Origin: Escherichia phage vB_EcoS_AHP42 | Reading direction: 5' to 3' (one strand) | DNA: 46,847 bases | Sequence record: NC_024793.1 | Shown here: in pieces, positions 24,117-43,838 of the stretch | Position numbering within the stretch: position 1 is the first letter of the stretch | How the letters are laid out: every line of letters begins with the position of its first letter | Made by a program: the position numbers and the translations under genes | The notes under the pieces: generated by a model | What the model saw: only the letters and a program-made list of their open reading frames with translations | Database searches by the model: none | What the model was told of the DNA's origin: nothing

Positions 24117-25085
24117 ATGAGCTTCAAGGTTTACACTAGCGACGAGTTAACCAACGAAGCCTACCACAAGGAGTCAGACCATGTGTCTGGCTCTGGTCTG
24201 GCTCACATCTTCTCAACTTGCCCCGCTGCTTATAAGTTTGCAGAGCATGATGATAGCAATAAGGCGTTAAAGTTCGGTACATTAGCCCACACGGTTATTC
24301 TTGAAAACTATGTATTCGATGCGACTTACTATCGCCAGCCAGCGCAAGAAGAGTTTGAGGATCTGATTACTAGCAAGACTGCTTTGGCAACTCGGTTGAA
24401 GTCGATGGGTATTGCTGGAACATCTGGTAAGGATTATCCAGAATTAATGGAGATTCTGGCGCTGAGCGGTGAATCACTTAACGTATGGTGGGATATTCAG
24501 CGCTCTAGCGAGGTTAAAGCGAACGGTCGCGAGATTGTATCAGCTAAAGACTTTGACACAGTACATGCGATGCGAGAGGTGCTGTGCGGCATTCCTGCAT
24601 ACAATGCGATAGTGAACAGTAAAACCGCTCAGCGAGAGTTATCAATCTTCGGTGAGATTAACGAGTGCGGCGTTAAGGTTCGTCTTGACCATGTCGATGT
24701 CGTTGATGATGTAGTTTATATCCGTGACTACAAGACGACTAGCGACGCATCTCCATCTGGATTTGGGAGATTGGCCTTCAAGCATGGTTACTTGCTAAAA
24801 ATGGCGCTTCAGCATGATTTGTTTGTTCGCGCCTTTAATGAGAAGCGTCGAGTTGTTGTTCAGCTTCTTTGCCAGGAAAAGAAAAGCCCATTCCTTCCAA
24901 TGTGCTACACGATAACAAAAGAGCACTTAAAGGTTGGTAGATTGCAATACATGAGCGCCCTATCCACATACAAGCAATGCAAGAAACTTGATATTTGGCC
25001 TGGTTACGGATTTGGCGAAACAGAGATGGAACTGCAAGTTCCTGAGTATGAGATGAAGAAGTACGAAGATAGCACGAATAGCTAA
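24117..25085 (+). CDS. putative PD-(D/E)XK recombination exonuclease
   Basis: 322 aa with a D...D-x-K-like core (DHVDVVDDVVYIRDYKTT); immediately upstream of the Erf-like and SSB genes. Confidence 0.55.
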   Translation: MSFKVYTSDELTNEAYHKESDHVSGSGLAHIFSTCPAAYKFAEHDDSNKALKFGTLAHTVILENYVFDATYYRQPAQEEFEDLITSKTALATRLKSMGIAGTSGKDYPELMEILALSGESLNVWWDIQRSSEVKANGREIVSAKDFDTVHAMREVLCGIPAYNAIVNSKTAQRELSIFGEINECGVKVRLDHVDVVDDVVYIRDYKTTSDASPSGFGRLAFKHGYLLKMALQHDLFVRAFNEKRRVVVQLLCQEKKSPFLPMCYTITKEHLKVGRLQYMSALSTYKQCKKLDIWPGYGFGETEMELQVPEYEMKKYEDSTNS

Positions 25086-25112
25086 AACGGTATTAAATCG
25101 ATGGGGTATAGT
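25070..25112 (+). promoter_or_regulatory. dyad-associated promoter upstream of the Erf-like gene
   Basis: TAGCAC-gaa-TAGCTA overlapping the exonuclease stop, 22 nt, TATAGT at 25107..25112, then CTCATCGACAACAAAGAGAG. Confidence 0.55.
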
Positions 25113-25141
25113 TACCTCATCGACAACAAAGAGAGATAGAA

Positions 25142-25789
25142 ATGAAGACTTCAGAGAGTAACAAAACAGTTTTACAGGCACTATTTAAAGCTCGCACAGG
25201 ATTTGCGAAGGCAGCAAGAGACAAGCAGAACAGTCACCTAAAGAATAGATACGCAACACTTGATTCCATGCTGGAGGCTGTAATCCCAGCACTTGATGAT
25301 AACGACTTAATGATTATGCAGAGCATGTTAGAAACATCAACTGCTGACAATCTTAACGTAGAGACGACTCTCTATCACGTTTCTGGCGAGTGGGTTAGCT
25401 TCTTCATGATTATGCCAATCGTTAAGAAAGACCCGCAAGGAGTAGGATCTGCATTTACATACGCTCGGCGTTACTCACTAGCGGCGGCTTTGGGAATTAG
25501 TCAGTCTGACGATGATGCGCAGATGGCAGTTAAGAGCGTCAAGGACTGGAAGCGCGATATTGAGAAGGCAGAAACTCGAGAAGAGCTTATCGAAATCTAC
25601 AAATCATGCAAATCACAAGCTGACACGGCAACGTGGGGTATAGTAGAGAAAGCGATAATAGATAAACAAGCAGAGATCAAAATGGCTTCCGCAAGTGGCT
25701 TCAACCCAGCTAAGCCAAAGGAAGTTGCTAAAAAAGTTGCAAACGCAACTAATGAAGTAGTAGAATCACAATCAATCGAGCAGTTCTAA
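25142..25789 (+). CDS. Erf-like single-strand annealing protein
   Basis: 215 aa; N-terminal region (KNRYATLDSMLEAVIPALDDNDL) resembles the ERF family; sits between the exonuclease and SSB. Confidence 0.55.
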   Translation: MKTSESNKTVLQALFKARTGFAKAARDKQNSHLKNRYATLDSMLEAVIPALDDNDLMIMQSMLETSTADNLNVETTLYHVSGEWVSFFMIMPIVKKDPQGVGSAFTYARRYSLAAALGISQSDDDAQMAVKSVKDWKRDIEKAETREELIEIYKSCKSQADTATWGIVEKAIIDKQAEIKMASASGFNPAKPKEVAKKVANATNEVVESQSIEQF

Positions 25790-25836
25790 ACTAAACGGGG
25801 CTTCGGCCCCAAAATCAAACGAGAAGAGAATATAAA

Positions 25837-26259
25837 ATGCATACTTTAACAGGCGTAATTCGTAAGGCTCCTTTCACTAAAGATGGTCAGAACGCCAAGG
25901 GTAACTGGAAGATGTACGCTATCGAAATGAGCGAATCTTATAAAACACGAGATGGAGAGCGTAAGTATAGTAATTATCGAGCTACCTTCTTTGCTAGCGA
26001 GGCGCAAATTAGCTGGTATGACGAAGCATTTCAGGAAGGAAAAGTTATCTCTGTGAGCGGCGATTCATTAGCGGTTAATGAGCGCGAACATAATGGCAAG
26101 ACATATATTACGCTTGAGTTGCAGAATCCTCGATTGATGTTTAGTCAGCGAGGAGGTGAATCAGAACAGCAGCAGCAGCGACAACAAGCTCAACAGCAAC
26201 AGAGACAGCAGCCGCAGCAACAAAGCCGATTTAGTGATGAAGATGATATTCCGTTTTAA
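25837..26259 (+). CDS. ssb: single-stranded DNA-binding protein
   Basis: 140 aa with OB-fold-like N-terminus, Gln-rich linker and the canonical acidic tail DEDDIPF. Confidence 0.85.
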   Translation: MHTLTGVIRKAPFTKDGQNAKGNWKMYAIEMSESYKTRDGERKYSNYRATFFASEAQISWYDEAFQEGKVISVSGDSLAVNEREHNGKTYITLELQNPRLMFSQRGGESEQQQQRQQAQQQQRQQPQQQSRFSDEDDIPF

Positions 26260-26267
26260 TGCAAAAG

Positions 26268-26293
26268 ATAAAGCCCCTTTCGGGGCTTTTTTA
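26268..26293. terminator. bidirectional terminator between SSB and the tailspike gene
   Basis: AAGCCCC-TTTCG-GGGCTTTTTT with an A-run on the other side. Confidence 0.75.
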
Positions 26294-29008
26294 TTGTGAC
26301 GTTACATCACCATTCAAACTCAAAAATACTGATTGTTTTGTCAAATCAACACCACCTTTAAGCGAATAGTATCTTGAAGCGCAATAATCAGACTCATCTG
26401 AATAGCTGCCAACGTAAACACCAAAGCCATATCCAGAGCAAGCTACATCACCAGCGCCTTGACCTGAATACATGGTTACATAGTTACCAGCTGTTGTTAG
26501 TATAGGCCTGACATCAATATCTATATACTGAGAATCAAATGACCTTCTAACTCTAAATCCAGTATTCAGGTTTAAGATGCTCCACCAAACCTTACCAGAT
26601 ACATCAAAACCAAGAGCAATATTGTAAGTACCACCGTTGACCATTCTTGATGAGACTGGCAACACACCTGATAAAACTCTTGTTTCACCTGATGCTGATA
26701 TTAACAATGAGACACTGTGTTCTCCTGATGCCATCACGTTATACTGCAAGTAAAGAGCATTACTATTAACTCCAAAACCAGTCCCTATAGCCATAAGGTT
26801 AAAGTCTTCAGCAACAGTTATGGTCGGCGATATATTGCATGTAGCGGTGAAACCTAGTGACGGGTCAAATCCAGTGCATATAATCTTATCTTTATTTGCC
26901 TGTGAAAGCCTTAGCCAATATTGCTGCCCAACTGATGATGCCGCTGCGGCGAATACTGGTGTATTAGAGACCCCATCAAAAGCTGAAGTGTCGTTTGCTG
27001 GCTTAATTCTTGTCTTCCTTTTGTCTATAAGTCCGTTTATCTTCAGGTTTCCTGAATACTCAGCAACATAGTTAGTGTCCCCTGAGAAATTTGGGCCAAA
27101 GTAACCAGATTCAACAACCCCATCGATCACAACATCAGATCTTGAGTCAAGGAATCTGAAGTTGCCAGCGGAAGTTGGCCTTCCATCGCCATTGTTAGAT
27201 ACATAGTTAAGCCCAACAAAACCATAGATTCTTACAGAGCTATTTGAAAACGAAACGTTATAATCTCTGTAGTTTGAGTTTATGCTGTTCCTGTTACTAT
27301 TTAATCCATTAAATACCACATTTCTAGAGTTTACAATTCTAACACCGTCACCACCGCAATCCTGCGCCTCTATAGCTGACATGGTGATGTTTTGGCAGTT
27401 ATCAATCAGGATGCCATAAGCATCATCAAGCTCATTATAAGCCGACCAACCCGACCAAATAAACTTACCGCCAACAATCCTACAGTTTCCGGCATTCCTA
27501 AGTATTAGACAATTTCTTCCACAGGTGTTTACCTGTATGTTATTCCATGTGAAGTCTGTTGTTTCGTTAATCAATCCGTCTTTTTTTATGTGCTGAATAA
27601 GAACATCATCAAGAACAGGAGAGTAGTTACCAGCAGCAACGAAAATTCCGTAAACATCAAACCCAGCAATGTGAGTGTTTCTTATCGTTAAGTCCCTTCT
27701 AGGGTCAGCACCAGTGTTGAATGGGTAATTGGTTGATAACCCAGTCGGAGTAGGGATGTAAATCCCAGCAGTACCATCAGTAAACGCCGTGTCTTGCTGG
27801 GCTCCAGTGCCGTAAAGAGCAATACCTTCAATATGAATGAGCGAGCAAGAATCAGAAACCTCAATTAAAGAGCCAATTGATGAACTAAGCTGAGTTATTC
27901 TTGACTTGTGCTTGCCAAAACCAATTATAGAGCAAGATTTATTTCTCATTACCAGGTTTGATGCCATGTAGTCGCTATCAAGCTTTAATGCCAGCCCGGA
28001 GTCTAGGATTTGCTGTATCTGTTTCGTTGAGTCTGATGTCGATGACTTAATGGCCCCAAGTTCGCAAGGCGACAGCTCCCCGCTACAGATTCTTTCCCAG
28101 TAATAACCGGTACTTGATTCAAAAACCAATCCTGAAGATAATCCATATGATAAAGATGACTCCGGCTTACAAACAAAGAACCCACCACCATAACCAAGAC
28201 CACCAATGTAAGAATCACAATAGACAACCTCTAAGTCATAAATTCTGGCAGAGTTTGTCATTGCTGATACTGATTCAAACCTTCTTGTGTAATCCTGTTG
28301 AATCCAAAAACCAACTCCAATACCACCTGTAGACTGTGGTGATGAGTTTTGTGGTATGGATTTTGGAACGCTACCAGACCAGTAATAAACCGAAACATGA
28401 TTGTCATTAAAGTAAATTGCAGGCTGAGTTCTTGAGTTTATTTCTCCACCATTTGAGAAATCAACTACAAGAGCAGATGACACAGAAGCCGCAGCAGAGC
28501 TTGCTATTGTAGCTGAAGAGGAAGCCGAGTTAGCGCTACTTTCAGCTAACTGCCTATCAGAAGATACCTGATCTTTGTCAGAAGAAACTTGAGCAGCATC
28601 AACAGCAACTTGCTGAGATTGCATGTTGACATTATTTACGCTTTGCTGGAAAGAATCAGAATCAAATTGATTAAAAGCATCAACTGCCGCTGCAACCTCT
28701 GTTTCACGGGACTGATAATAACGAAGTGTCTCAGCAACGTCCTGAGCAAGACCTTGGACAGTAATTCCGTCATGAGCAAGGATTGAGTACTGAGTCCCAG
28801 CTGGCGCAGTAAAACCTTTATCATTGAATACACGAATCTCTGTATCGCTTAAAATCTCAGCGATAGTAACAATGCTTGTCGGGGTGGTGTTAAAAATCAT
28901 TGTTGCGCCAACTCGGATTAGTGTTAGTGGTTGCCTCCACGTGGTGCCAACACCAGTTACAGTTCCGTCAGCTGCAAGCGATGCAGTTCCAGCGTCATAA
29001 ATTGCCAT
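26291..29008 (-). CDS. tail fiber / tailspike with beta-helix (putative depolymerase) domain
   Basis: 905 aa: tail-fiber-like N-terminus, Ser/Ala/Gln-rich linker, central parallel beta-helix-like repeats (NTHIAGFDVYGIFVAAGN...ILRNAGNCRIVGG...RIVNSRNVVFNG), C-terminal domain; AGGAGA RBS. Confidence 0.7.
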   Translation of the reverse strand: MAIYDAGTASLAADGTVTGVGTTWRQPLTLIRVGATMIFNTTPTSIVTIAEILSDTEIRVFNDKGFTAPAGTQYSILAHDGITVQGLAQDVAETLRYYQSRETEVAAAVDAFNQFDSDSFQQSVNNVNMQSQQVAVDAAQVSSDKDQVSSDRQLAESSANSASSSATIASSAAASVSSALVVDFSNGGEINSRTQPAIYFNDNHVSVYYWSGSVPKSIPQNSSPQSTGGIGVGFWIQQDYTRRFESVSAMTNSARIYDLEVVYCDSYIGGLGYGGGFFVCKPESSLSYGLSSGLVFESSTGYYWERICSGELSPCELGAIKSSTSDSTKQIQQILDSGLALKLDSDYMASNLVMRNKSCSIIGFGKHKSRITQLSSSIGSLIEVSDSCSLIHIEGIALYGTGAQQDTAFTDGTAGIYIPTPTGLSTNYPFNTGADPRRDLTIRNTHIAGFDVYGIFVAAGNYSPVLDDVLIQHIKKDGLINETTDFTWNNIQVNTCGRNCLILRNAGNCRIVGGKFIWSGWSAYNELDDAYGILIDNCQNITMSAIEAQDCGGDGVRIVNSRNVVFNGLNSNRNSINSNYRDYNVSFSNSSVRIYGFVGLNYVSNNGDGRPTSAGNFRFLDSRSDVVIDGVVESGYFGPNFSGDTNYVAEYSGNLKINGLIDKRKTRIKPANDTSAFDGVSNTPVFAAAASSVGQQYWLRLSQANKDKIICTGFDPSLGFTATCNISPTITVAEDFNLMAIGTGFGVNSNALYLQYNVMASGEHSVSLLISASGETRVLSGVLPVSSRMVNGGTYNIALGFDVSGKVWWSILNLNTGFRVRRSFDSQYIDIDVRPILTTAGNYVTMYSGQGAGDVACSGYGFGVYVGSYSDESDYCASRYYSLKGGVDLTKQSVFLSLNGDVTSQ

Positions 29009-29060
29009 GTTATTTCTCCTATTTGATAGATGAAACCTATTGTATCAGATTAAATGCAAT

Positions 29061-29081: not shown

Positions 29082-29086
29082 GATTG

Positions 29087-30062: not shown

Positions 30063-30536
30063 TTACTCTTTAGCTTTTCGTGCTTCTTCTCTTTCTTTCT
30101 TAACCTTTCGCCATGATTTACGCTGCGGCTTGGTTGCTAACTCAGCTTCTGTAACAACTCGAAGCATCTGACGCTTCTTGCATCGCAGTGTTAGAGGCTT
30201 GCCGTTACCGTCGAACTGTAAATCAGGTCGGCAGAATGTAGCCCTGAACCCCTCGCCAGTTCGCTTATATCGATTATGCGCAAGCTGTGCGCCGCGAGCT
30301 GAAATCATTCCCCGCTTACACCATTCTTCTACAGCCTGGCGCGTAACCTTTAGCTGCTTAGCTAGATTGGCCTTGCTGCCGTAGAAGTCCAATACAATCT
30401 CAAGGCGCGCCCTTAATCCTGCTCTCACTTCATCCTTTAGTACATAGTAACCTGATGGACGCTTACGCGGCTTCTTGTCTTCTGTGCGAATTGTTCCGTT
30501 GTTACCATTAAGAGTACGCTTGTCAATTGAATCCAT
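30063..30536 (-). CDS. basic HTH DNA-binding protein (candidate transcription regulator)
   Basis: 157 aa, very basic, with HTH-like SKANLAKQLKVTRQAVEEWCKRGMIS; divergent from the helicase gene, with the dyad element between the two starts. Confidence 0.5.
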   Translation of the reverse strand: MDSIDKRTLNGNNGTIRTEDKKPRKRPSGYYVLKDEVRAGLRARLEIVLDFYGSKANLAKQLKVTRQAVEEWCKRGMISARGAQLAHNRYKRTGEGFRATFCRPDLQFDGNGKPLTLRCKKRQMLRVVTEAELATKPQRKSWRKVKKEREEARKAKE

Positions 30537-30549
30537 TTTCTCACCTCAA

Positions 30550-30591
30550 TAGCACTTTTTGTTAAACATTGGTTTAGATGGCTGTTATTAT
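30550..30591 (+). promoter_or_regulatory. dyad-associated promoter upstream of the helicase gene
   Basis: TAGCAC-ttt-TTGTTA, 21 nt, TATTAT, then CAATCGAACGAAC; overlaps the divergent HTH gene upstream region. Confidence 0.55.
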
Positions 30592-30628
30592 ATCGTCAAT
30601 CGAACGAACATTAAAGGCATTTGATATT

Positions 30629-32572
30629 ATGGAAAACCGATTGAAAACAATACAAAAACAGATTGAAGAATTGGGCGAAGATAAGATTAAAGAGATTCAA
30701 ACTAAATTCACCTCTTCTAACGGCATGGTTCCGTATAGCTATCAGTGTGTTATGTACAATGAGATTGCAAAGCGCATTAGTCGCTATGAGCATCCATTTA
30801 TCGCAATGGCTTCAGTTTCTGCTGGTAAGACTCTGGTTTTTGGTATGGTTGCTAAGCGTTGCTCTGAGCTTGGCTTGCCTATGCTTGTTCTTGCTCGTCA
30901 GGCAGAGCTGGTTAGCCAGAATGCTTCTGAGATTTCTGATTACGGGGTTCCTAACTCCATTTATTGCTCTGGGCTTGGAATAAAATCATCTTATTTCCCT
31001 GTGGTGGTTGGCTCTGAGGGCACAGTAGTTGGCGGGCTTAAGAAGTCACTTGGCGATTTCTGTCCTGCGGTAGTTGCTATTGATGAGTGTCACCATATTG
31101 ATGACCAGGACATAGCGGAGGCAATTGATAACAATGAGACTGCGCAACAGGCATCAGATAAGGGGCGTAGCCAGTATACGGTCATCATCCTGACTTTAAT
31201 GGAGCGCTGCCGTGCTAAGTATGGCAAGAATCTTCGTATCTTTGGACTGACTGGTTCTCCTTTCCGTGGAACTACGCCAATAGTTGTTGAAAACAAAAAG
31301 GAGTTGGGATTTTGGCGTGAGACGGTCACAAATATCGATACAAACTACCTGGTCGAGTTCGGTTCCGTGGTTCCGACAAACTTTGGTGCTACTGATGGCG
31401 TTGGTTACGACCTGTCAGAGTTTGATGCATCATCTGAAGATGGTGTTCAGGATTACACTAAAGCCCAGCTTGAAGCCATGGATAAAAAGATTCAGGCATC
31501 TGGAACAATGACAGCGGAGATAATGAAGAAAGTATGGCTTGCCGCGAAAAACAGGAATGGAGTTCTGGTAACATGCGCAGGTGAGCGCCATTGCCACGAA
31601 GCCGCAAGTTACCTTCCTGAAGGTGAAAAGTTCTGCATTATAACTGGAAAGACTGGCGAGAAGCAGCGCAAGGAGTTGCTTGATAAGTGCTTTAGCGGGG
31701 AGATTAAATATTGCTTTCAGGTTCAGGCGCTAACCACTGGCGTAAATGTGCCTACATGGGATACAAGCGTTATTCTGCGTAAGATTGGTAGCCTTACGCT
31801 CCTGGTTCAGCTACTTGGTCGAGGAATGCGTAAGCTTAAGAAGCTCCATGAAGATAAAGGAATGGTCAAGAATGACCATTTGGTACTGGACTTCGCAGGA
31901 ACGATGGACTCTATGGCATCATTGTACTTCAATCCAATTCTTGAGCAGGCTCAATATCAGCTACGAAAGAGTAATGGCAAGGAGACTAAGCAGTGTCCAG
32001 TATGCGGAACAGAGAACAGCTTCTTTGCTCGACGTTGCATGCATATTGATGAGAATAATAATCGCTGCGAATATTTCTGGGTTAGTCGCACATGTGAAGA
32101 CCAGAAAGACCCACGAACCGGAAAGGTTATCGTTAAAGGCTGCGGAGTTCAGAATGACGTTGCAGCTAAGATTTGTAGGGGTTGCGATTGCACTTTGCTT
32201 GATCCAAATCTCAACTTAAGCGGCAAACATTACCGCAAGAACGACTGGTTTGATGTTGTTGACTTTAAGGTTGGGCTAACAAAGAACCAATCAGGAATCA
32301 TCTACAACTACATCCTTGATGATGGCATGGGTGGGACATTCAAAGCTCATGAGGTTTTCTTTGTAGAGTCTGACCATCGAGTATGTAAAACGCTCTGGTT
32401 GAACAATGGAATTAAAGGTCACGTAGTCGACATGAACGCTAAGCGATATATGGCTGCATATCGCAATGCTCGCAAGATTATGGAGTATGCGCAGTACATC
32501 CATGCCCCTAAGAGGGTAACTCACCGCAAGACCGCTAAAGGTGGCGATAATATTGCTAATAAGGAGTTCTAA
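30629..32572 (+). CDS. SF2 helicase (DEAH-type) with C-terminal zinc ribbons
   Basis: Walker A SAGKT, DECH box (VAIDECHH) and C-terminal Cys clusters. The track start at 30578 lies inside the conserved promoter/leader, so the ATG at 30629 is used. Confidence 0.75.
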   Translation: MENRLKTIQKQIEELGEDKIKEIQTKFTSSNGMVPYSYQCVMYNEIAKRISRYEHPFIAMASVSAGKTLVFGMVAKRCSELGLPMLVLARQAELVSQNASEISDYGVPNSIYCSGLGIKSSYFPVVVGSEGTVVGGLKKSLGDFCPAVVAIDECHHIDDQDIAEAIDNNETAQQASDKGRSQYTVIILTLMERCRAKYGKNLRIFGLTGSPFRGTTPIVVENKKELGFWRETVTNIDTNYLVEFGSVVPTNFGATDGVGYDLSEFDASSEDGVQDYTKAQLEAMDKKIQASGTMTAEIMKKVWLAAKNRNGVLVTCAGERHCHEAASYLPEGEKFCIITGKTGEKQRKELLDKCFSGEIKYCFQVQALTTGVNVPTWDTSVILRKIGSLTLLVQLLGRGMRKLKKLHEDKGMVKNDHLVLDFAGTMDSMASLYFNPILEQAQYQLRKSNGKETKQCPVCGTENSFFARRCMHIDENNNRCEYFWVSRTCEDQKDPRTGKVIVKGCGVQNDVAAKICRGCDCTLLDPNLNLSGKHYRKNDWFDVVDFKVGLTKNQSGIIYNYILDDGMGGTFKAHEVFFVESDHRVCKTLWLNNGIKGHVVDMNAKRYMAAYRNARKIMEYAQYIHAPKRVTHRKTAKGGDNIANKEF

Positions 32573-32961
32573 TGGTTAAGGTTTTTCACGACAAAACAAG
32601 CACGGACAAGGCTAAAGAGGTTGTTCACCAAATAAATTCAATAGCTTGGGTTCGCCACAACCATCCAGAGATATTTGCTTTTCACGTGAAGAATGAAGGT
32701 CTCAAGTCTATCGGCACAGCAATGAAGGACAAGCAGGAGGGAGTAATTAAGGGTGTATCAGATATTCTACTGATTGGACCAAATGGCTTTGCCGCAATAG
32801 AGCTTAAGCGAGCAATAAAATCAGATAGCAAGGTTTCAAAGGAGCAAAAGGAGTTCCTGGAAAAGGTATCAGAAACAGGAGGTTACGCGGCAATCTGTTA
32901 TGGGTTTGAAATGTTTAAGTTGGCAATTACAGATTATCTATCAAATGGCACGAATTGCTAA
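32572..32961 (+). CDS. putative VRR-NUC nuclease
   Basis: 129 aa with GVSDILLIGPNGFAAIELKRA...SKEQKEFLEKVSETGGYAAICYG, resembling the VRR-NUC D-E-K core; ATGG overlap with the helicase stop. Confidence 0.55.
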   Translation: MVKVFHDKTSTDKAKEVVHQINSIAWVRHNHPEIFAFHVKNEGLKSIGTAMKDKQEGVIKGVSDILLIGPNGFAAIELKRAIKSDSKVSKEQKEFLEKVSETGGYAAICYGFEMFKLAITDYLSNGTNC

Positions 32962-32988
32962 AGAGATTTCGCAAGGATGCGATATAGT
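32946..32988 (+). promoter_or_regulatory. dyad-associated promoter
   Basis: TGGCAC-gaa-TTGCTA overlapping the VRR-NUC stop, 22 nt, TATAGT, then TTCATCGAAACGAAGAGAG. Confidence 0.55.
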
Positions 32989-33019
32989 TACTTCATCGAA
33001 ACGAAGAGAGAGAAACAAA

Positions 33020-33432: not shown

Positions 33433-33629
33433 TTACTGCGACTTGCGTAATGACGAACGGCTCATTCACCCTGCTCAATGAGTATGAATTCAAACTTGAC
33501 CCGATTAATGACCAGGTTGAAATAGTTAGCGATGACGGATTTGCATGGAAGTTACATAATGAATTTGATGGGTACTACGGGTGTAATGATGCGAAAGGTA
33601 AGCATGTAAGTTTTCTTGTTTATGAGTAA
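33411..33629 (+). CDS. hypothetical protein
   Basis: 72 aa overlapping the upstream gene by 22 nt. Confidence 0.4.
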   Translation: MPGGFFMITATCVMTNGSFTLLNEYEFKLDPINDQVEIVSDDGFAWKLHNEFDGYYGCNDAKGKHVSFLVYE

Positions 33630-33630
33630 A

Positions 33631-33673
33631 TAGCACTTTTTGTTAAAACTAAAATACAAGGATGGATTATATT
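33631..33673 (+). promoter_or_regulatory. dyad-associated promoter
   Basis: TAGCAC-ttt-TTGTTA, 22 nt, TATATT. Confidence 0.5.
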
Positions 33674-33703
33674 AATTACATCAGCAAATGAGAGGGTTAA
33701 GAG

Positions 33704-33829: not shown

Positions 33830-34065
33830 TAGTTGAAAGCGGACGCGCCGCTGTATGGGCGCATTGTGGAGAGGCGGGATTGCAGGATGACATCAAGATG
33901 ATAGGTAAATACTTTGATATTGATGACATATCTGTAGTTTTCAATGGGAAGTTTAGTTATATGAACCAGCGGCCACGCAAGTATGTAAGAGTTCCAGCAA
34001 CGCCTAGCCTCGCAATGTATCGCGAGGAAGGTAAGAAGATATTTAAGAAAGGTGCGAAGAAATGA
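33826..34065 (+). CDS. hypothetical protein
   Basis: ATG at 33826 is coupled to the upstream small ORF; the track start at 33781 is a TTG with no RBS. Confidence 0.45.
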   Translation: MIVESGRAAVWAHCGEAGLQDDIKMIGKYFDIDDISVVFNGKFSYMNQRPRKYVRVPATPSLAMYREEGKKIFKKGAKK

Positions 34066-34319
34066 ATTTACCTGGTCTAGATTTTGCTGAGAGTAAGTAT
34101 CAGGTTGTGTTTTTTGGTGAGAAGCCTTATCGGAAGATTCCTTTCTCTGAGTGGATTCCTCCGGACTACCTCGATGTACTGGTGCAAATTGAGATTGGTA
34201 AAGCTGAGTTGATGTACTATTCGCCAGGTTGCAATATGATGATGCCTAGTGAGTATTCACCAGCAATTTCTGCTCTAGAAACTGAGTTTCTTGATTACTG
34301 GCTAAAAGAAGTAAAATAG
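34062..34319 (+). CDS. hypothetical protein
   Basis: 85 aa, ATGA overlap with the upstream gene; its TAG stop lies inside the next dyad element. Confidence 0.45.
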   Translation: MNLPGLDFAESKYQVVFFGEKPYRKIPFSEWIPPDYLDVLVQIEIGKAELMYYSPGCNMMMPSEYSPAISALETEFLDYWLKEVK

Positions 34320-34358
34320 CACTTTTTGTTAAAAACATCGCCACGGATGGCGTATAGT
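34317..34358 (+). promoter_or_regulatory. dyad-associated promoter upstream of the phosphoesterase unit
   Basis: TAGCAC-ttt-TTGTTA, 21 nt, TATAGT, then TTCATCGAAACGAGAG. Confidence 0.55.
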
Positions 34359-34386
34359 GTGTTCATCGAAACGAGAGACGCTTCAG

Positions 34387-34469: not shown

Positions 34470-35606
34470 ATGGCTATCGCTAAAATCACCAACGAAGAGT
34501 TAAAGCAAGAACTGGCTAACGGTATGACTAACAAGGCAATCGCAGAGAAGTACGGTATGAATATTCGTAACGTAGAGCTGCGTCGCAGCAAGCTGGCTAA
34601 GGCTGGGGATGGTCACGGTCGCGATGTGAGTAACCTAATTCCTCAGGGCTACATGGTTAAAGGTGTATCTAGCCTTGTTGATAATGATGGCAATGTGAAG
34701 TTGCAATGGGTTAAGTCCTCTATTGATGCAGAGAAGCTTGAGGAGATGATGAATCAAGCGCGAGAGGCATTCTCTAGCGAGCTACCAAAAGAAAAAGCAG
34801 TTAAATCTGAAGGTCTGAATTTTGATGAAGATACTTTAGCTATGTATCCAGTATTTGACCTTCACATTGGCGCAATGGCCCACAAGCATGAGTGCGGAGA
34901 AAACTACGACACAGCAACGGCAGAGAAAGTAATGAACGATTATTTTGACTACGCCGTACAGAAATCTCCAAATTCAAAGAATGCTGTACTAGTGCTAGGA
35001 GGTGATCTGCTTCATTATGATTCCTTGGAAGCCAAAACTCCAGCCAGTGGTCACATCCTGGACAGTGACAGTCGCTACGCCAAGATTGTTTATGTTTGCA
35101 TTCGAGCGGTTCGCCGCGCAATTCGAAACATGCTTAGCAAACATGAAAACGTAGAGGTTAAAGTTATATCTGGTAATCATGATGAAAGTGGTATGGTTTG
35201 GTTGCGGGCTGCGCTTGCTGCATTTTATGAGGAAGAGCCACGCGTTAGTATTGATGTTAGTCCCGCGGCAATGATGGTAACTAAGTTTGGTTCTACAATG
35301 CTTGGTTTCACTCACGGGCATCAAATGCGTAAAGCTGATACTCGCCTTTCGGTTATGGCTACTGACTGGCGACGTGACTTTGGTTTAAGTGATTATGTAT
35401 ACACCCACTCAGGCCACTGGCATTCACAGAAGATTACAGAGACAAATCTTGGTATTGATGAGGTTCATGGTCAGCTTGGTTCACCAGATGCATATAGTGC
35501 GAATGGCGGGTGGCGCTCACAAAGGCAGGCTGCGGTAATCATATATCATAAAGAGTTTGGTGAGGTTGGTCGTTTTATCTGTCGCCCAGAAATGTTTAAT
35601 AAATAG
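34470..35606 (+). CDS. HTH-domain metallophosphoesterase (calcineurin-like, Mre11/SbcD-type motif order)
   Basis: N-terminal HTH-like MTNKAIAEKYGMNIRNVELRR, then DLHIG, GGDLLHYD, GNHDE and GHWH in the canonical metallophosphoesterase order. Confidence 0.6.
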   Translation: MAIAKITNEELKQELANGMTNKAIAEKYGMNIRNVELRRSKLAKAGDGHGRDVSNLIPQGYMVKGVSSLVDNDGNVKLQWVKSSIDAEKLEEMMNQAREAFSSELPKEKAVKSEGLNFDEDTLAMYPVFDLHIGAMAHKHECGENYDTATAEKVMNDYFDYAVQKSPNSKNAVLVLGGDLLHYDSLEAKTPASGHILDSDSRYAKIVYVCIRAVRRAIRNMLSKHENVEVKVISGNHDESGMVWLRAALAAFYEEEPRVSIDVSPAAMMVTKFGSTMLGFTHGHQMRKADTRLSVMATDWRRDFGLSDYVYTHSGHWHSQKITETNLGIDEVHGQLGSPDAYSANGGWRSQRQAAVIIYHKEFGEVGRFICRPEMFNK

Positions 35607-35671
35607 CACAAATAGTCAAGAAACTACCCGCGAAAGCGGGTATTTTTGTTTCACACAACTGAGGAGGTAAT

Positions 35672-36163
35672 ATGAATTGGAATGATTTTCTCGAATATAG
35701 AGATGGAAAGCTTTACTGGACAGATCCACACTCAACAAAATTTAAGCCAGGGGATGAGGCTGGATGTAGGCATCATAGGGGTTATCATTATATAAGGAGA
35801 TATAACACCGCGATGTCAAGGCATAGGATAGTATTGACAATGTTTAATGGAGAGATACCGGAAGGCATGGAGATTGATCACATAGACCATGACGTTGATA
35901 ATGATCGGATTGAAAACCTAAGAATGGTTACAAGGAGGCAGAACAATCAAAACAAAAAGCTAGATGAAAGAAATACTAGCGGACATGTTGGGGTTAGTTG
36001 GAACAAGAAGACAAACAAATGGAGAGCAATGATAGGTATAAAGGATAATGACGGGAAGCGGAAAACGGTATATGTTTATTATGGTGACTCTTTCGACGAC
36101 GCGGTATTGGCAAGGAAGAAAGCTGAAGCTGAATACTCATTTCATGAAAATCACGGAAAATAG
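35672..36163 (+). CDS. HNH homing endonuclease (AP2-type), paralog of 15979..16467
   Basis: MNWNDFLEYRDGKLYW N-terminus plus HNH core; strong GAGGAGG RBS; AGG/AGA-rich codon usage. Confidence 0.75.
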   Translation: MNWNDFLEYRDGKLYWTDPHSTKFKPGDEAGCRHHRGYHYIRRYNTAMSRHRIVLTMFNGEIPEGMEIDHIDHDVDNDRIENLRMVTRRQNNQNKKLDERNTSGHVGVSWNKKTNKWRAMIGIKDNDGKRKTVYVYYGDSFDDAVLARKKAEAEYSFHENHGK

Positions 36164-36203
36164 CACTAATTGCTAAAACACAAATCAAAAGATGGGGTAT
36201 ATT
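36161..36203 (+). promoter_or_regulatory. dyad-associated promoter
   Basis: TAGCAC-taa-TTGCTA overlapping the HNH stop, 22 nt, TATATT, then CTCCATCAAAACAAAACGAGAGG. Confidence 0.55.
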
Positions 36204-36236
36204 TACTCCATCAAAACAAAACGAGAGGATACAAAG

Positions 36237-38344: not shown

Positions 38345-38348
38345 TTAA

Positions 38349-39938: not shown

Positions 39939-39972
39939 CTCTCTCTAAATGCCCCCGAAGGGGCTTGATTAT

Positions 39973-40152: not shown

Positions 40153-40190
40153 TTTTTAGCCCTTTTAATTTATTTCGTTTCGATGAAGAG

Positions 40191-40235
40191 AATATATCAA
40201 TTTTTGTTGTTAAGTTCTTTAGCAAAAAGTGCTAT
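40191..40235 (-). promoter_or_regulatory. dyad-associated promoter (minus strand)
   Basis: Minus strand: TAGCAC-ttt-TTGCTA, 22 nt, TATATT, then TCTTCATCGAAACGAAA; drives 39973..40152 and downstream genes. Confidence 0.55.
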
Positions 40236-40351
40236 TAAAGACCAACCAGACATTTGCCAACTACAACAGCGATTGCGCCCATGAAGCCAAAGAAACCAAA
40301 CTTAATTACTTGTTCCATTACCGCATCAACTGCTTTAGAGATGTTTTTCAT
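40235..40351 (-). CDS. small membrane protein (38 aa)
   Basis: From the internal ATG at 40351 with RBS AAGGTG; C-terminal hydrophobic segment FGFFGFMGAIAVVVGKCLVGL; the longer track ORF lacks an RBS. Confidence 0.4.
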   Translation of the reverse strand: MKNISKAVDAVMEQVIKFGFFGFMGAIAVVVGKCLVGL

Positions 40352-40388
40352 TTTGTTCACCTTAGTTTTTGTCTTCTTGATGGAAACA

Positions 40389-40434
40389 AATATACCCGCC
40401 GAAGCGGGTACTGTCATTAGCAAAAAGTGCTATT
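40389..40434 (-). promoter_or_regulatory. dyad-associated promoter (minus strand) with embedded UUCG hairpin
   Basis: Minus strand: TAGCAC-ttt-TTGCTA, a spacer containing hairpin ACCCGC-TTCG-GCGGGT, then TATATT and TTCCATCAAG. Confidence 0.5.
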
Positions 40435-40639
40435 TTTTTAAGTGCCCTGGCGCATAGCATTTTCCATCCTTCTTATGCAAAACCCACCCAGCATATTTAA
40501 GTTGCCTTGCACAATCAGAAAAGTTCTCGCCCGCAGCGTCCGTATAGTGTGGCATAAAATAAGAACCATCATCATTTGACTCAGTTGAGCACTTCTTACA
40601 GTCGCAATAAACAGCGATGGAATAACCTGAAACAATCAT
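40430..40639 (-). CDS. small cysteine-rich protein
   Basis: 69 aa with a CDCKKC cluster plus further Cys/His residues, a possible zinc-binding protein. Confidence 0.45.
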   Translation of the reverse strand: MIVSGYSIAVYCDCKKCSTESNDDGSYFMPHYTDAAGENFSDCARQLKYAGWVLHKKDGKCYAPGHLKK

Positions 40640-40989
40640 TTGTAAGCCGCCTCAAACTTATACATCCCATAACCCACATCAAAGCCAACTTCTTCATCAC
40701 GCGTCAACTGCCAGCCCTCGCCGTCTTCATCATAAATATACCCAGCGTTACGACCAAGTGATGAAGTCATTGATACCTGGTAACGCTTACCCTTACTGAA
40801 ACTCTTCTTGAGTGGTGACTTGTGGTTCACGAAAGTGCAAAGCAAAGTCTTGGTCTTGACGTAACGACCCCGGCCAGTGAGATTTTGCCATTTACCATGA
40901 ATCTTGATTTGCTCAATACCATCTTTAACGCGAGCTTTAAACATATTGTTATCTGAGCTGATCCAGTTTTTAGTGATAGTGGTAGCCAT
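40636..40989 (-). CDS. hypothetical protein
   Basis: 117 aa, coupled to the downstream Cys-rich gene by overlap. Confidence 0.45.
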   Translation of the reverse strand: MATTITKNWISSDNNMFKARVKDGIEQIKIHGKWQNLTGRGRYVKTKTLLCTFVNHKSPLKKSFSKGKRYQVSMTSSLGRNAGYIYDEDGEGWQLTRDEEVGFDVGYGMYKFEAAYK

Positions 40990-41014
40990 TACTATTTTCC
41001 TTTTTGGTTTGTTA

Positions 41015-41317
41015 TTAGTTAGCGTTATGACGTTCGATATAGTCGCGGATTGTTTCGCCTACGCTTTTAGCGGCACCAAAAGTGCCCTTTGCGTGGCGTG
41101 AATCGCGGTACGTCTGGAAGAATTTACGAGCGATGTTTGCGAACATTGAACCAGTCACGCGAGCATCACCGAAATTTGTTTCGATAGCGTTGCTAATGCC
41201 ATCCTTGAACTCATTTTCAGTCATGAACATCTCTGCCATGCCAGCAGTCTCGAAAAGGTTAGCTAATTCATTCATGTTGTTATGGTCTTCGGCTGTAAAC
41301 AGGTTCATGTTAATCAT
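41015..41317 (-). CDS. hypothetical protein
   Basis: 100 aa downstream of a minus-strand palindrome-associated promoter. Confidence 0.45.
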   Translation of the reverse strand: MINMNLFTAEDHNNMNELANLFETAGMAEMFMTENEFKDGISNAIETNFGDARVTGSMFANIARKFFQTYRDSRHAKGTFGAAKSVGETIRDYIERHNAN

Positions 41318-41351
41318 CTTCGTGATTCCTTAGTTTCGTTTCGATGAGATG

Positions 41352-41395
41352 AATATACAATAAAAGCCCCGAAGGGCTTTAGCAATTCGTGCTAT
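41352..41395 (-). promoter_or_regulatory. dyad-associated promoter (minus strand) with embedded hairpin
   Basis: Minus strand: TAGCAC-gaa-TTGCTA, a spacer containing AGCCC-TTCG-GGGCT, then TGtATATT and CATCTCATCGAAACGAAAC. Confidence 0.5.
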
Positions 41396-41544
41396 TTCTT
41401 TGCTGCTTTTGCAATTGCCTTCTGGACGATGTTGAAGCTCTCAATCAAATCTTCTTTGAAGTAGTCACCAACAGGCCAACCCTTACCGCTGTACTTGGCT
41501 ATGGTTTCTAGATCGTAATAGTTCAAGTCAGATGGCTTTAGCAT
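41392..41544 (-). CDS. hypothetical small protein (50 aa)
   Basis: Not in the track; RBS GAGGT; start abuts the upstream gene stop (TAAATG). Confidence 0.35.
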   Translation of the reverse strand: MLKPSDLNYYDLETIAKYSGKGWPVGDYFKEDLIESFNIVQKAIAKAAKK

Positions 41545-41784
41545 TTACTTAACCTCATCAAAAGTTGCAACACCAGGGATAAACATTCCAACCTTCCAGC
41601 CAGAGATAGCAATCCATCCAGAATCGTGCTTGTGCGGTCGCTCAGAGCCATTAATCACCCACTCATTCGGGATTGTTTTACCATTAATGATTAGAGGCTC
41701 AGCGTCGTATACGGAGCCTTTTATGAATGGTGTTAATACATTCTTATCCGTGCTTTGGATAACGTTGGTGCAGCGAATCTTCAT
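41545..41784 (-). CDS. hypothetical protein
   Basis: 79 aa, overlaps the upstream gene by 4 nt. Confidence 0.45.
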   Translation of the reverse strand: MKIRCTNVIQSTDKNVLTPFIKGSVYDAEPLIINGKTIPNEWVINGSERPHKHDSGWIAISGWKVGMFIPGVATFDEVK

Positions 41785-41999
41785 GCTACCACCTCAATTT
41801 CTTCATTACTAACAACAAACTTTTCACCTTGAAAGATTGCAAGAGTACCATCAACATATACATGATCCTTTAAACTCATCATGTAGAAGCCTTCAATCTC
41901 GTAAACTTCCACCTCCTCACCAATCTGATAGCCAAGTTCGGCAAGGCTCATTGAATCTTCGTCGTACCTAATTTCGTTGTTGATAATAATCGCTTTCAT
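41781..41999 (-). CDS. hypothetical protein
   Basis: 72 aa, first gene after the minus-strand promoter at 42028..42072; RBS GAGGAG. Confidence 0.45.
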   Translation of the reverse strand: MKAIIINNEIRYDEDSMSLAELGYQIGEEVEVYEIEGFYMMSLKDHVYVDGTLAIFQGEKFVVSNEEIEVVA

Positions 42000-42027
42000 G
42001 TTTCTTCTCCTCTCTGTTGATTAGCAA

Positions 42028-42072
42028 ACTATAGCCAGTCATGGTGGATTTGTCTTTAGCAAAAAGTGCTAT
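42028..42072 (-). promoter_or_regulatory. dyad-associated promoter (minus strand)
   Basis: Minus strand: TAGCAC-ttt-TTGCTA, 22 nt, TATAGT, then RBS GAGGAG for 41781..41999. Confidence 0.55.
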
Positions 42073-42345
42073 TCGTCAGATTTATGGATTGTTGCAGGCA
42101 TTGCGATGATTAGCATGACTATTACACATAAAGCAATATTTCATCGAGTGCAACAGGTTTATTGATTGTTGCCAGTTTGGCAATGATGGATGGATGGATT
42201 GAATGAAAGGAGGTCTGGATCAAATAGTTGGTTGGTTTTATCGCTCGCGGAGAGACTTCTTTTATATACGCGTAGTCCGCTGTCTACCGATTGTCGACCG
42301 TATCCACATTTACAATTTATACGCCTTGATATAATCCATATACAC

Positions 42346-42440
42346 TAAAATATCCTTATATATAAAGGACTTAGACTATTATTATTATTATATATAGTAT
42401 TATGTATATATAGCGTATCATCTGTACGCCACTATATAGG
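42346..42440. repeat. AT-rich repeat block B, homologous to 22651..22730
   Basis: TCCTTATATATAAAGGACTTAGACTATTATTATTATTATATAT...TGTATATATAGCGTA; flanked by TATACGC repeats, a (GATG)x3 run and the palindrome TTCCTACAcTGTAGGAA. Confidence 0.6.
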
Positions 42441-42630
42441 TTGGTTTGCTTAAATTTCTATTTTTATTCCTACACTGTAGGAATTGTACTACCTTGTAGG
42501 AAAATATAGGAGGATATAGCTAGAACCACCTCATCTATATGTAGACGCACGTAGACGCCTGTACACACCCAGCAACGATGCGGCATGCAGGGCAAAAAGC
42601 GTATCAATTTTAAAATAAACAAAAAATACA

Positions 42631-42659
42631 TTTATATACACGTAAATCTTTGCTATAGT
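42631..42659 (+). promoter_or_regulatory. putative early promoter without dyad (extended -10 TGcTATAGT, AT-rich UP-like region)
   Basis: TTTATA, 17 bp, TGC-TATAGT, followed by the conserved TTTCATCGAAACGAGG leader; AT-rich upstream; first promoter after the long noncoding region. Confidence 0.45.
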
Positions 42660-42708
42660 CATTTCATCGAAACGAGGCAACAAACAACAATCAACGAGAG
42701 GAATTATC

Positions 42709-43251
42709 ATGAGCAAAACGACCTTAGGTGAAGTAATTCGATTCATGGCTAAAAAGGCACTCCAGTCAGAAGATAAGGAGTTCAAGGTTCCAGTTCGAGA
42801 TATTTACCGACAAATTAGAGGTCATGATTACCCGGAAATGGAGACTGATGATAAAACCGGGGATATTATCAACCTTGGAGAGCGGAAGTTGAGTGAGTTA
42901 AAGAACTCATACATTCATAATACATTGTCACGAATGAGAGAGTTGCGTGAGGCTAAGTATATCGCCCGTTATCAATTCATCTGGATTGATGCGGATGGTG
43001 AAGATACCACGCCCCGCCAGTATGATGGCGATGGTGCTGATAAATACCTGCTAATCCATCTCACCGAGGGGGTTAAGGAGCCAAAAGCAAAACAAAGAGA
43101 GAAAGAAGAAAAGGAGCGGGCTGTTATTGAGAAGTTCAAATCTCGCTTGCTTAAGTTATCACCTAACGTACTGGATTTTGAAGGTGATGAGCTGACTGGC
43201 GCAGTTAAGGCTATCCGCATGTATCAAGAGATGATCAAGGAGTTTAACTAA
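42709..43251 (+). CDS. hypothetical early protein
   Basis: 180 aa, first gene after a long AT-rich regulatory region; promoter is extended -10 TGcTATAGT without the dyad. Confidence 0.5.
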   Translation: MSKTTLGEVIRFMAKKALQSEDKEFKVPVRDIYRQIRGHDYPEMETDDKTGDIINLGERKLSELKNSYIHNTLSRMRELREAKYIARYQFIWIDADGEDTTPRQYDGDGADKYLLIHLTEGVKEPKAKQREKEEKERAVIEKFKSRLLKLSPNVLDFEGDELTGAVKAIRMYQEMIKEFN

Positions 43252-43811
43252 TGTTTGATTTCGACGAAGATAAGTTAACTGATGACCAGGTGATGGAAGT
43301 CGCCAGGCAAGATAACCTGCCGCCACTTCGTGTGGCAATCAATACTAATGGATACCGCCAATCATTCAATTTCTGGCCCAGCGCCGAAGAGATGCTGTGC
43401 GTCAAGTTGAGCTACAAATACGGCGTAGTAGTGAGCAGGATTAGCCGCCAGGGCTGGAATGGAGTGGTTGGCATTCGATCTCTATACGAGGCAATCCGAA
43501 AGGTCCAGCCATTCGTCGGGCGCGAAGGGATTATGCATGACCTGACAAATAACATCATCCCAGAACTACAGGAGGCGGGAATTGTTTGCCTCATTGGCGA
43601 TAAGATTTATGTTCATCCGGCCCTGGTTGGGATGGATAAGGACGACGTGCAAAACTGGTGCAGCCAGTACCGATCCGACGCGCCACGCTCACACTACGTG
43701 CCACCGCAAACAACAATCCATGGCTATGATGCCGATGAGGTGGAGAAGGCCATACAGTTCTACCGGAAAGCGAAAGCTCTCCTGAATGGTGAATATAGCA
43801 CAAATTGCTAA
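43251..43811 (+). CDS. hypothetical protein, minimised paralog of the 529-aa protein
   Basis: N-terminus MFDFDEDKLTDDQVMEVARQDNLPPLRVAINTNGYRQS and C-terminal block GVVGIRSLYEAIRKVQPF...CLIGDKIYVHPALVG match the termini of 38349..39938; the central domain is absent. Confidence 0.55.
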   Translation: MFDFDEDKLTDDQVMEVARQDNLPPLRVAINTNGYRQSFNFWPSAEEMLCVKLSYKYGVVVSRISRQGWNGVVGIRSLYEAIRKVQPFVGREGIMHDLTNNIIPELQEAGIVCLIGDKIYVHPALVGMDKDDVQNWCSQYRSDAPRSHYVPPQTTIHGYDADEVEKAIQFYRKAKALLNGEYSTNC

Positions 43812-43838
43812 ACAATAAATTGGGTAGTCAGCTATGAT
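43796..43838 (+). promoter_or_regulatory. dyad-associated promoter
   Basis: TAGCAC-aaa-TTGCTA (codes the C-terminus of the upstream protein), 22 nt, TATGAT. Confidence 0.5.

Follow-up and report, generated by a model that had tools for sequence, protein, structure and literature searches.

Why do unrelated genes of one phage end in the same few codons? The question arises in Escherichia phage vB_EcoS_AHP42 (NC_024793.1), a T1-like siphophage of the genus Rogunavirus (Drexlerviridae), whose 46,847 bp, the whole stretch analysed, are called the window below. A short element of the form (A)ATAGCAC-N4-TGCTAAA, here called the box, provides the 3' ends of several of its genes. The initial annotation described this element as a dyad and took the identical gene ends as the signature of recombination-mediated module exchange at conserved boundary sequences. 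Our analysis leads to a different answer. The box is the first part of a longer cassette that is very probably a promoter, with the shared protein tails as by-products, and it matches the binding site of the host regulators MarA, SoxS and Rob.

The structural genes of the window lie at approximately 1-21 kb, on the plus strand. The remainder carries recombination, replication and lysis genes and many small genes, in alternating orientation. The annotation of vB_EcoS_AHP42 contains no integration genes (PMC4070988). Phage vB_EcoS_AKS96 is 99.7% identical to the window over 24-36 kb, and C119, Rogue1, JK06 and AHP24 are other close relatives. The relatives used for comparison were AKS96, AHP24, Rogue1, C119, JK06, e4/1c, Opt-719 and T1.

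Nine window genes stop inside the box, six on its TAG and three on its TAA. Two more stop directly against it (the open reading frame, ORF, ending at 33629 and the minus-strand ORF ending at 40235). The three near-identical tails (..STNS, ..GTNC and ..STNC) reported initially were all confirmed: the exonuclease gene (24117-25085) ends in ..PEYEMKKYEDSTNS (..YEDSTNS), the VRR-NUC gene (32572-32961, Pfam VRR_NUC) in ..DYLSNGTNC, and the ORF of 186 amino acids (aa) at 43251-43811 in ..NGEYSTNC. All three genes take their last four codons and the TAA from the box, read as AGC/GGC-ACN-AAT-(T/A)GC-TAA. The 186-aa protein had also been called a paralog, a relationship that was not recovered, as it has no detectable similarity to its 180-aa neighbour (BLASTP E = 0.68). 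The four genes said to stop on the TAG of TAGCAC do so: the TAG at 34317, 35604, 36161 and 44919 is the stop codon of the ORFs ending at 34319, 35606, 36163 and 44921. Two minus-strand ORFs that had been missed, 41392-41544 and 40430-40639, likewise use the box TAG. Stop codons were counted in an approximate 78-gene model of the window, which gave 49 TAA, 20 TGA and 9 TAG; six of the nine TAG belong to a box TAGCAC. The hexamer TAGCAC by itself was ruled out as the signal, being found 24 times in the window against 24.4 expected.

In nine related genomes with 128 cassettes, the stop codon of the upstream ORF was the box TAG in 51 cases and the TAA in 24, and lay within one nucleotide of the box edge in a further 24. 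These counts indicate that box-terminated genes are a family-wide phenomenon. The box offers stops in two frames, TAG at positions 2-4 (ATAGCAC) and TAA at positions 15-17 (GCTAAA). Its 5' flank is A-rich, often after a T, which places a third-frame TAA directly against the box. Because there is no spacer between gene and box, upstream ORFs end within about 20 nucleotides (nt) in any frame.

Are these tails selected as protein? The TAG is equally conserved in boxes without an upstream gene (22553 minus, 30549 and 42072 minus), and the tails are not kept in orthologs, as they should have been if they were conserved linkers. T1 gp16 ends in ..CRPEMF against the box, whereas its window ortholog ends in ..CRPEMFNK on the box TAG. 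The exonuclease frame of AHP24 ends in ..YELA in the sequence shown, because an HNH gene has been inserted there. The conservation of TAG without an upstream gene, together with the different ends of orthologs, suggests that the tails are incidental read-through of a signal acting at the DNA level. In a tightly packed genome, the box would abut the preceding gene and upstream ORFs would run into its stops; the ..K ends and the ..STNC/..STNS tails would then be by-products without function at the protein level. We hold it as highly probable that the cassettes are promoters and the tails their by-products.

When the copies are aligned, the "dyad" turns out to be no more than the opening section of a cassette that spans about 75 nt. 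The order is (A)A-ATAGCAC-(G/T)(A/T)(A/T)T-TGCTAAA, a variable spacer of 19-20 nt that often forms a small hairpin, a TAnnnT -10 hexamer, six nucleotides and a C-A start. The predicted CA start is followed by a leader (ATCGAAACGA / TCGAAACGA(A/G)A), a purine-rich ribosome-binding site and the start codon. The most common -10 hexamers were TATAGT (42), TATTAT (22) and TATATT (22). Counting 12 nt from the start of the hexamer leads to an A with C or T before it in 107 of 113 distinct cassettes. Among 89 distinct cassettes from 12 genomes, the distance from the start of the box to the hexamer was 38 nt in 56, 39 nt in 23 and 37 nt in 6. The description as a dyad holds for 5+5 bp only (TAGCA/TGCTA); the rest of the site is asymmetric and oriented, with invariant bases at A1, C7, T11, A17 and A18 that have no symmetric partners.

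All 15 full copies in the window have the same orientation as the downstream gene, GCAC being upstream and AAA downstream, and none is located in the structural gene block. Boxes 22553 (minus), 30549 and 42072 (minus) lie in divergent intergenic regions where no gene precedes them. The strict orientation, the fixed distance of 38-39 nt to the -10 and the presence of boxes in divergent regions without an upstream gene argue that the role of the box is primarily transcriptional. Ordinary sigma-70 consensus promoters were not above chance between 30 and 46.8 kb (32 against 35.3 expected), and were rejected as the main promoters of the early region.

The Escherichia coli binding site for MarA, SoxS and Rob (marbox) has the published consensus AYnGCACnnWnnRYYAAAY (PMC3709825), or GCAHWWWWTGYYAAA in the version from chromatin immunoprecipitation sequencing (PMC6900184). 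Allowing up to one mismatch, the first form occurs at 15 window sites, where 1.02 +/- 1.04 were expected; in 100 shuffles the count never rose to 15. The second also gave 15 sites (1.9 expected), 8 of them perfect. A logo was built from 60 distinct cassettes gathered by anchoring on the -10 and leader, not on the box; all specified marbox positions were conserved in it except position 19. The symmetric GCA...TGC is itself common to marboxes and the phage box.

In class II marbox promoters, the site is in forward orientation, overlaps a poor -35 and is centred near -41 (PMC12052159, PMC10268841, PMC8811837); for micF, the position is about -41 (PMC8811837). Relative to the predicted, sequence-derived start, the centre of the phage box falls at approximately -40 to -41. 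Spacing was also read directly from E. coli K-12: in micF the distance from the start of the marbox ACAGCACTGAATGTCAAAAC to the -10 TAGAAT is 38 nt, and in inaA the marbox likewise starts 38 nt before TATAGT. The fumC box ATGGCACGAAAGACCAAAC, which a terminator precedes, was dropped as a third spacing reference since its -10 is ambiguous (offset 35-39). The mar marbox ATGCCACGTTTTGCTAAATC has CAC-N-TTTTGCTAAA in common with the "T-type" phage box. The -35 region of the cassettes matched TTGACA at 2.9 of 6 positions on average, and at 4 of 6 (xxGACA) in a third of them, slightly better than the three or fewer matches of Salmonella class II promoters (PMC10268841). The cassettes thus agree with class II promoters in sequence, orientation and spacing, and are borderline in the -35 region. 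Judged together with the host-activator model considered below, these features make the box a probable marbox in class II promoter position.

The same site recurs in relatives. Allowing up to one mismatch, AHP42 has 15 sites, T1 has 21, a Klebsiella Webervirus has 14 and a Veterinaerplatzvirus has 13, where shuffled sequence gave about 1. A Vibrio phage related through its helicase (39% identity) had one site, which is the chance level. Such a distribution is compatible with a host factor of enterobacteria as well as with a phage factor specific to the family. Scanning IMG/VR with the exact box returned many single chance matches and multi-copy contigs of about 45-53 kb. The VRR-NUC protein as query retrieved seven related loci, five of them from known isolates.

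The 15 cassettes, a degenerate box copy and the HNH gene that lies between two boxes are listed below.

22502..22553, minus: promoter cassette; box 22553-22535; -10 TATAGT 22514-22509; predicted start 22502; first ATG 22468 (lipoprotein gene, Pfam Phage_lipoprotein); no convincing upstream gene.
22910..22960, plus: promoter cassette; box ATAGCACGAATAATCAAAA 22910-22928; -10 TATAGT 22948-22953; predicted start 22960; divergent region, upstream of the Rha-family gene.
25069..25119, plus: promoter cassette of the Erf-like gene; box 25069-25087; -10 25107-25112; predicted start 25119; the exonuclease reads AGC ACG AAT AGC TAA (25071-25085).
30068..30086, minus: degenerate box copy (G)AAGCACGAAAAGCTAAAG; no -10 at the correct distance; a terminator follows.
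30549..30598, plus: promoter cassette of the helicase gene; box 30549-30567, 0 marbox mismatches; -10 TATTAT 30586-30591; predicted start 30598; divergent region, no upstream gene.
32945..32995, plus: promoter cassette; box ATGGCACGAATTGCTAAAG 32945-32963; -10 32983-32988; predicted start 32995; the VRR-NUC gene ends GGC ACG AAT TGC TAA (32947-32961).
33630..33680, plus: promoter cassette; box 33630-33648; -10 TATATT 33668-33673; TAA of the upstream ORF (33627-33629) against the box.
34316..34365, plus: promoter cassette; box 34316-34334; spacer hairpin CGCCAcggaTGGCG; -10 TATAGT 34353-34358; TAG 34317-34319 stops ORF 34062-34319.
35603..35653, plus: composite terminator and promoter; box ATAGCACAAATAGTCAAGA 35603-35621; GC hairpin 35625-35642, then a T-run; TATTTT 35641-35646.
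35672..36163, plus: HNH homing-endonuclease gene (Pfam HNH_3 and AP2); optional.
36160..36210, plus: promoter cassette; box 36160-36178; -10 TATATT 36198-36203; predicted start 36210; first ATG 36237; TAG 36161-36163 stops the HNH gene.
40184..40235, minus: promoter cassette; box 40235-40217; -10 TATATT 40196-40191; predicted start 40184; upstream TAA 40237-40235, its last A common to the box.
40382..40433, minus: composite terminator and promoter; box 40433-40415; hairpin 40411-40392; -10 TATATT 40394-40389; TAG 40432-40430 stops ORF 40430-40639.
41345..41395, minus: composite terminator and promoter; box 41395-41377; hairpin 41380-41363; -10 TATATT 41357-41352; predicted start 41345; TAG 41394-41392 stops ORF 41392-41544.
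42021..42072, minus: promoter cassette; box 42072-42054; -10 TATAGT 42033-42028; predicted start 42021; ATG 41999; divergent region.
43795..43845, plus: promoter cassette; box 43795-43813, 0 marbox mismatches; -10 TATGAT 43833-43838; the 186-aa ORF ends AGC ACA AAT TGC TAA (43797-43811).
44918..44968, plus: promoter cassette; box 44918-44936, 0 marbox mismatches; -10 TACCAT 44956-44961; TAG 44919-44921 stops ORF 44622-44921.

Three copies, 35603, 40433 (minus) and 41395 (minus), have a GC-rich hairpin in the spacer with a T-run that merges with the -10, and are composite terminator-promoters. The TAG at 35604-35606 is the stop codon of a gene for a 378-aa phosphoesterase/exonuclease, and box 35603 is the left boundary of the optional HNH cassette. 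The degenerate copy at 30068..30086 is read in the third, stop-free frame, as ..EEARKAKE, at the 3' end of the gene for a Cro/YdaS-like regulator.

In many cassettes an inverted repeat brackets the -10, with a mean best stem of 5.34 compared with 4.71 +/- 0.10 when the arms were taken from different cassettes. An example is GATGGGGTA-TAG-TTACCTCATC; such repeats are found at 25093-25125 and 36184-36215 of the window and in most other cassettes. The arms vary in T1 and stay complementary (GGGGAAT/ATTCCCC, GGGCATT/AATGCCC and AGGCCA/TGGCCT; L005 1469-1500, 4363-4395 and 4883-4915). This repeat could be a hairpin in read-through RNA or a feature of the DNA itself.

Longest-ORF calls put the start codon within a cassette at 30578, 36192, 22543 and 40423 in place of 30629, 36237, 22468 and 40351. 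The annotations of relatives and the predicted transcription starts indicate that the downstream ATGs are the real start codons; for the helicase gene, the AKS96 annotation makes 30629 the probable start.

Some related sequences depart from the cassette. A cassette-like promoter without a box is present at 42631-42680 (TTTATA, 17 nt, (TG)TATAGT, then the usual CATTTCATCGAAACGAGG leader), with a DUF7174 gene downstream at 42709. The minus-strand tail-fibre gene near 29040 has an extended -10 of similar kind upstream (TGATACAAT...CATCTATCAAA). At 17804-17822, the sequence ATGGCACAAATGGTTAAAC matches the marbox perfectly; it overlaps the start codon of the large tail-fibre (J-like) gene and has no -10 at the cassette distance. 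In T1, ATAGCACAAAAAGGTAAAC (L005 25021-25039) is non-coding and lies 22 nt upstream of the orthologous gene, and a further match is found in L139 at 23030 on the minus strand. As the T1 match is non-coding, the site seems to be conserved at the DNA level, and is possibly a candidate binding site without a promoter. T1 also carries boxes at 18850 and 15086 (L005, minus strand), antisense inside the structural block, with TAnnnT downstream at different offsets; these may be antisense promoters.

Which protein would act on the cassettes? A phage-encoded MarA-like activator was considered and rejected. Pfam detected no AraC-type helix-turn-helix (HTH) domain in 49 non-structural ORFs of about 35 aa or more, and tblastn with approximate MarA and SoxS probes gave nothing significant. 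The only regulators found by the Pfam scan were the Cro/YdaS-like HTH protein (30063-30536, minus) and the Rha protein. Because no AraC-type protein was found in the phage, we infer that the activator would be host Rob, MarA or SoxS. Moreover, all non-structural units are placed behind copies of this box and no alternative good promoters were found, so at least some cassettes must fire with host proteins alone. Rob is constitutively abundant, without induction. In the proposed mechanism, one of these host proteins would recruit sigma-70 RNA polymerase to the cassettes, where the box would overlap and replace a proper -35, and this recruitment would drive the non-structural genes. The sequence evidence inclines us slightly towards host activators of the MarA/SoxS/Rob type acting on the cassettes. 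The broader proposal is more tentative, at just under even chances: Drexlerviridae, as a whole family of virulent enterobacterial phages, may drive essentially all their non-structural units from near-consensus class II marbox promoters, using, and perhaps sensing, MarA, SoxS and Rob.

Several points weigh against a marbox read by host activators. Where the marbox has Y at position 19, phage boxes usually have G or A. Chromosomal marboxes are also far more degenerate than the phage box, in which A3, T11 and T12 are nearly invariant, and this stringency might reflect another protein of greater specificity. The inverted repeat of 5+5 bp is perfect, its half-sites are spaced by one helical turn, and it would suit a dimeric HTH protein as well; among the phage products are the Cro/YdaS-like regulator, whose conservation extends to T1, and the Rha protein. 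A G at -14 was present in 84 of 113 cassettes and TG in 30 of 113, and with the 4/6 matches to the -35 in a third of cassettes these features might allow activator-independent initiation. T1-like phages plaque well on unstressed laboratory strains, and we know of no report of rob, marA or soxS mutants resisting them. The literature searched on T1-like phages gave no transcription-start, binding or genetic data.

One alternative to a host activator is that the box is the operator of a dimeric HTH protein of the phage, for example the Cro/YdaS-like protein (30063-30536, conserved to T1 gp23), which would bind TAGCA-N5-TGCTA and activate or shut off the promoters, the likeness to the marbox being coincidental. 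The inverted repeat and the stringency described above would be in keeping with such an operator, as would the retention of the regulator gene across the family in the annotations and the degenerate box copy in its own 3' end. The asymmetric invariant positions A1, C7, T11, A17 and A18 and the strict co-orientation are, however, unexpected for a symmetric operator. Coincidence would also have to account for agreement with a published but unrelated site at 18 of its 19 consensus positions, and for a distance of 38 nt to the -10 as in micF and inaA. Furthermore, with all non-structural units on the same box and no excess of ordinary promoters, there is nothing to make the first phage activator. 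A symmetric operator was rejected as the main model since conservation was not two-fold symmetric, and we regard a phage operator of this kind as unlikely.

The alternative closest to the initial annotation is that the boxes are conserved boundary linkers for homologous recombination, that the modules between them are swapped, and that the tails are scars of exchange, as proposed for the PeSLs of T4-like phages (PMC2839356, PMC4122927). Breakpoints were obtained by aligning the window to ten relatives and clustering the alignment ends over 22.4-46.8 kb. Sixteen of 78 clusters fell within 10 nt of a cassette, where 5.4% were expected under uniformity (p = 4e-6); these statistics are approximate, since the breakpoints are BLAST end-points and the comparators are mutually related. 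The other 62 clusters were more than 10 nt from any cassette, which counts in part against the linker. The enrichment also did not persist when gene junctions were compared with each other: a breakpoint was found at 12 of 16 junctions with a box and at 21 of 37 without one (Fisher p = 0.24). Breakpoints thus appear to track gene boundaries in general. Among 46 indel or replacement events, 27 touched no cassette and 19 touched one at one end or more; only 2-3 had boxes at both ends. The expectation that gene content would vary between successive dyads was borne out for some swaps at boxes only.

Individual cases nevertheless fit a linker. The HNH gene at 35672-36163 is the clearest replaced segment with a box on both sides, the cassette (35610-36157) lying exactly between the two. 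Rogue1, AHP24 and JK06 have another small ORF in its place; homology ends inside box 35603 and resumes three nucleotides before box 36160. In AHP24 and Opt-719, a paralogous HNH gene is inserted directly 5' of box 25069. C119, JK06 and other relatives have different genes in front of boxes 40433 (minus) and 44918: ORF 40430-40639 is replaced in C119, JK06 and phiKP26, and the TAG that stops ORF 44622-44921 of the window ends an unrelated gene (..YVYFSK) in C119. At their other ends, these swaps break at a start codon or at an ATGA overlap. Among the proteins of the phage are a RecE-like exonuclease, an Erf-family annealing protein and SSB, and RecE/Erf-type recombination systems can use short homologies. 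Exact coincidence with a box does not discriminate between the models, however. With no nucleotide between gene and box, any mechanism that replaces the upstream gene has to leave its break at the edge of the box. In addition, a recombination site needs neither strict orientation, nor a fixed distance to the -10, nor copies in invariant divergent regions. Boxes mark the 5' edge of transcription units and thereby coincide with some mosaic breakpoints. What stands of the initial proposal is that one non-coding element supplies stops and short tails to unrelated genes and edges some variable cassettes; the recombination signature was not borne out by the junction test. Exchange within boxes is possible, given the RecE-like and Erf-like functions of the phage, but exchange at boxes would be at most a side effect and not their main role. 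Boundary linkers are thus an improbable explanation of the element.

Free-standing HNH genes are behind several of the sharpest presence/absence differences (516|1109, 25067, 25822 and 35609|36158). Copies are located at 550-1077 and 35672-36163 in the window, at 24663-25136 in AHP24 (L006) and at 21437-21931 in C119 (L003). The AHP24 and window copies have a common 3' end (..FHENH..), with a box after each. In the late region, AHP24, Rogue1 and C119 carry an extra box and small ORF, a moron-like unit, between two minor tail genes (L006 15104-15440, L001 19332-19540 and L003 11080-11370). The window lacks this unit (15102-15105) and has only a degenerate box-like sequence, AAGCACTTTTTGTTAAT, at 15910. 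Recurrent breakpoints were also seen at 46343|46564, in a segment with the single tRNA-Arg (anticodon CCT, 46266-46341), which was the sole match in an Rfam scan.

Finally, it is very unlikely that the host RNA polymerase reads the box directly and without an activator, with TTGCTA in the role of a displaced -35, or with the A-rich box in that of an UP-like enhancer, for although the AKS96 annotators listed TTGACA(N23)TATAAT at one box, UP-like elements were suggested for the homologous repeat of phage TLS (PMC11447400) and G is frequent at -14, UP elements are A/T tracts and not GCAC...GCTAAA, the invariant GCAC would be left unexplained, and a spacer of 22-23 nt is out of the functional sigma-70 range.

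A class II marbox promoter is a concrete and cheaply testable model of transcription in T1-like phages, which are notorious as contaminants of laboratories, are candidate agents for the biocontrol of E. coli O157:H7, and have promoters that are essentially uncharacterised. If the model is true, bile salts, salicylate, oxidants and mar-type resistance mutations would directly modulate phage gene expression. Expression would be tied to the host regulon for intrinsic antibiotic resistance, with a bearing on phage-antibiotic interactions and on host range within the Enterobacterales. The built-in stops of the box would let promoter-gene units drop behind any ORF. For annotation, the cassette explains the ..STNC and ..K tails of unrelated proteins, why most amber stops are TAGCAC, and why several automatically called starts inside cassettes are too far upstream. 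With regard to phage evolution, it illustrates that conserved sequence at gene ends is not by itself proof of a recombination linker.

Four known systems can be compared with the cassettes. PeSLs are likewise small, dispersed and conserved motifs, combining a promoter with a stem-loop or terminator between accessory genes, and some indels end there (PMC2839356, PMC4122927). Their sequence is unrelated, however, and their promoter logic is different; the phage indels were not preferentially bounded by the box (12/16 against 21/37 junctions, 2-3 of 46 events). The stoperators of mycobacteriophage L5 are likewise numerous asymmetric sites in one orientation in short intergenic spaces (cited in PMC11447400). 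They serve a repressor in a temperate phage and their position relative to a -10 is not fixed, whereas the AHP42 boxes have a fixed promoter geometry. Both L5-type stoperators and UP elements fit this geometry and the GCAC...AAA content less well.

The closest phage counterpart is already known. The re-annotation of phage TLS (German et al./Kropinski 2024) described a 21-nt direct repeat, aaATAGCACnnnTTGnTAAAA, at 21 positions, co-oriented with transcription and placed between genes, with start codons following after about 76 nt; by the same account, T1, Rtp and Rogue1 have it too (PMC11447400). Only three sigma-70-like promoters were found in TLS, and its authors left the function of the repeat open between a stoperator, an enhancer-binding site and an UP-like element (PMC11447400). 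Consensus, co-orientation, placement and the A/T/G spacer subtypes are alike, and the repeat is the same element as the AHP42 box. The TLS paper contains neither the marbox match, nor the fixed distance of 38-39 nt to the -10, nor the stop codons and tails supplied to upstream genes. In the literature searched, no paper named the repeat as a marbox or tied Drexlerviridae transcription to MarA, SoxS or Rob. Thus the repeat itself is known, and its reading as a marbox is new.

The class II marbox promoters of the mar/sox/rob system in E. coli and Salmonella (micF, inaA and fumC) differ from the cassettes in several respects. The phage has about 15 near-consensus copies per 47 kb, whereas the host sites are scattered and degenerate, and the phage boxes have the additional invariant A3, T11 and T12 and are fused to hairpins or terminators and to a conserved leader. 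The likeness, drawn from sequence comparison, covers the consensus, the forward orientation, the overlap with the -35 region, whose own match to TTGACA is borderline, and the predicted centre at about -41; the -10 TATAGT of inaA and the box-to-(-10) distance of 38 nt in micF and inaA recur identically in phage cassettes.

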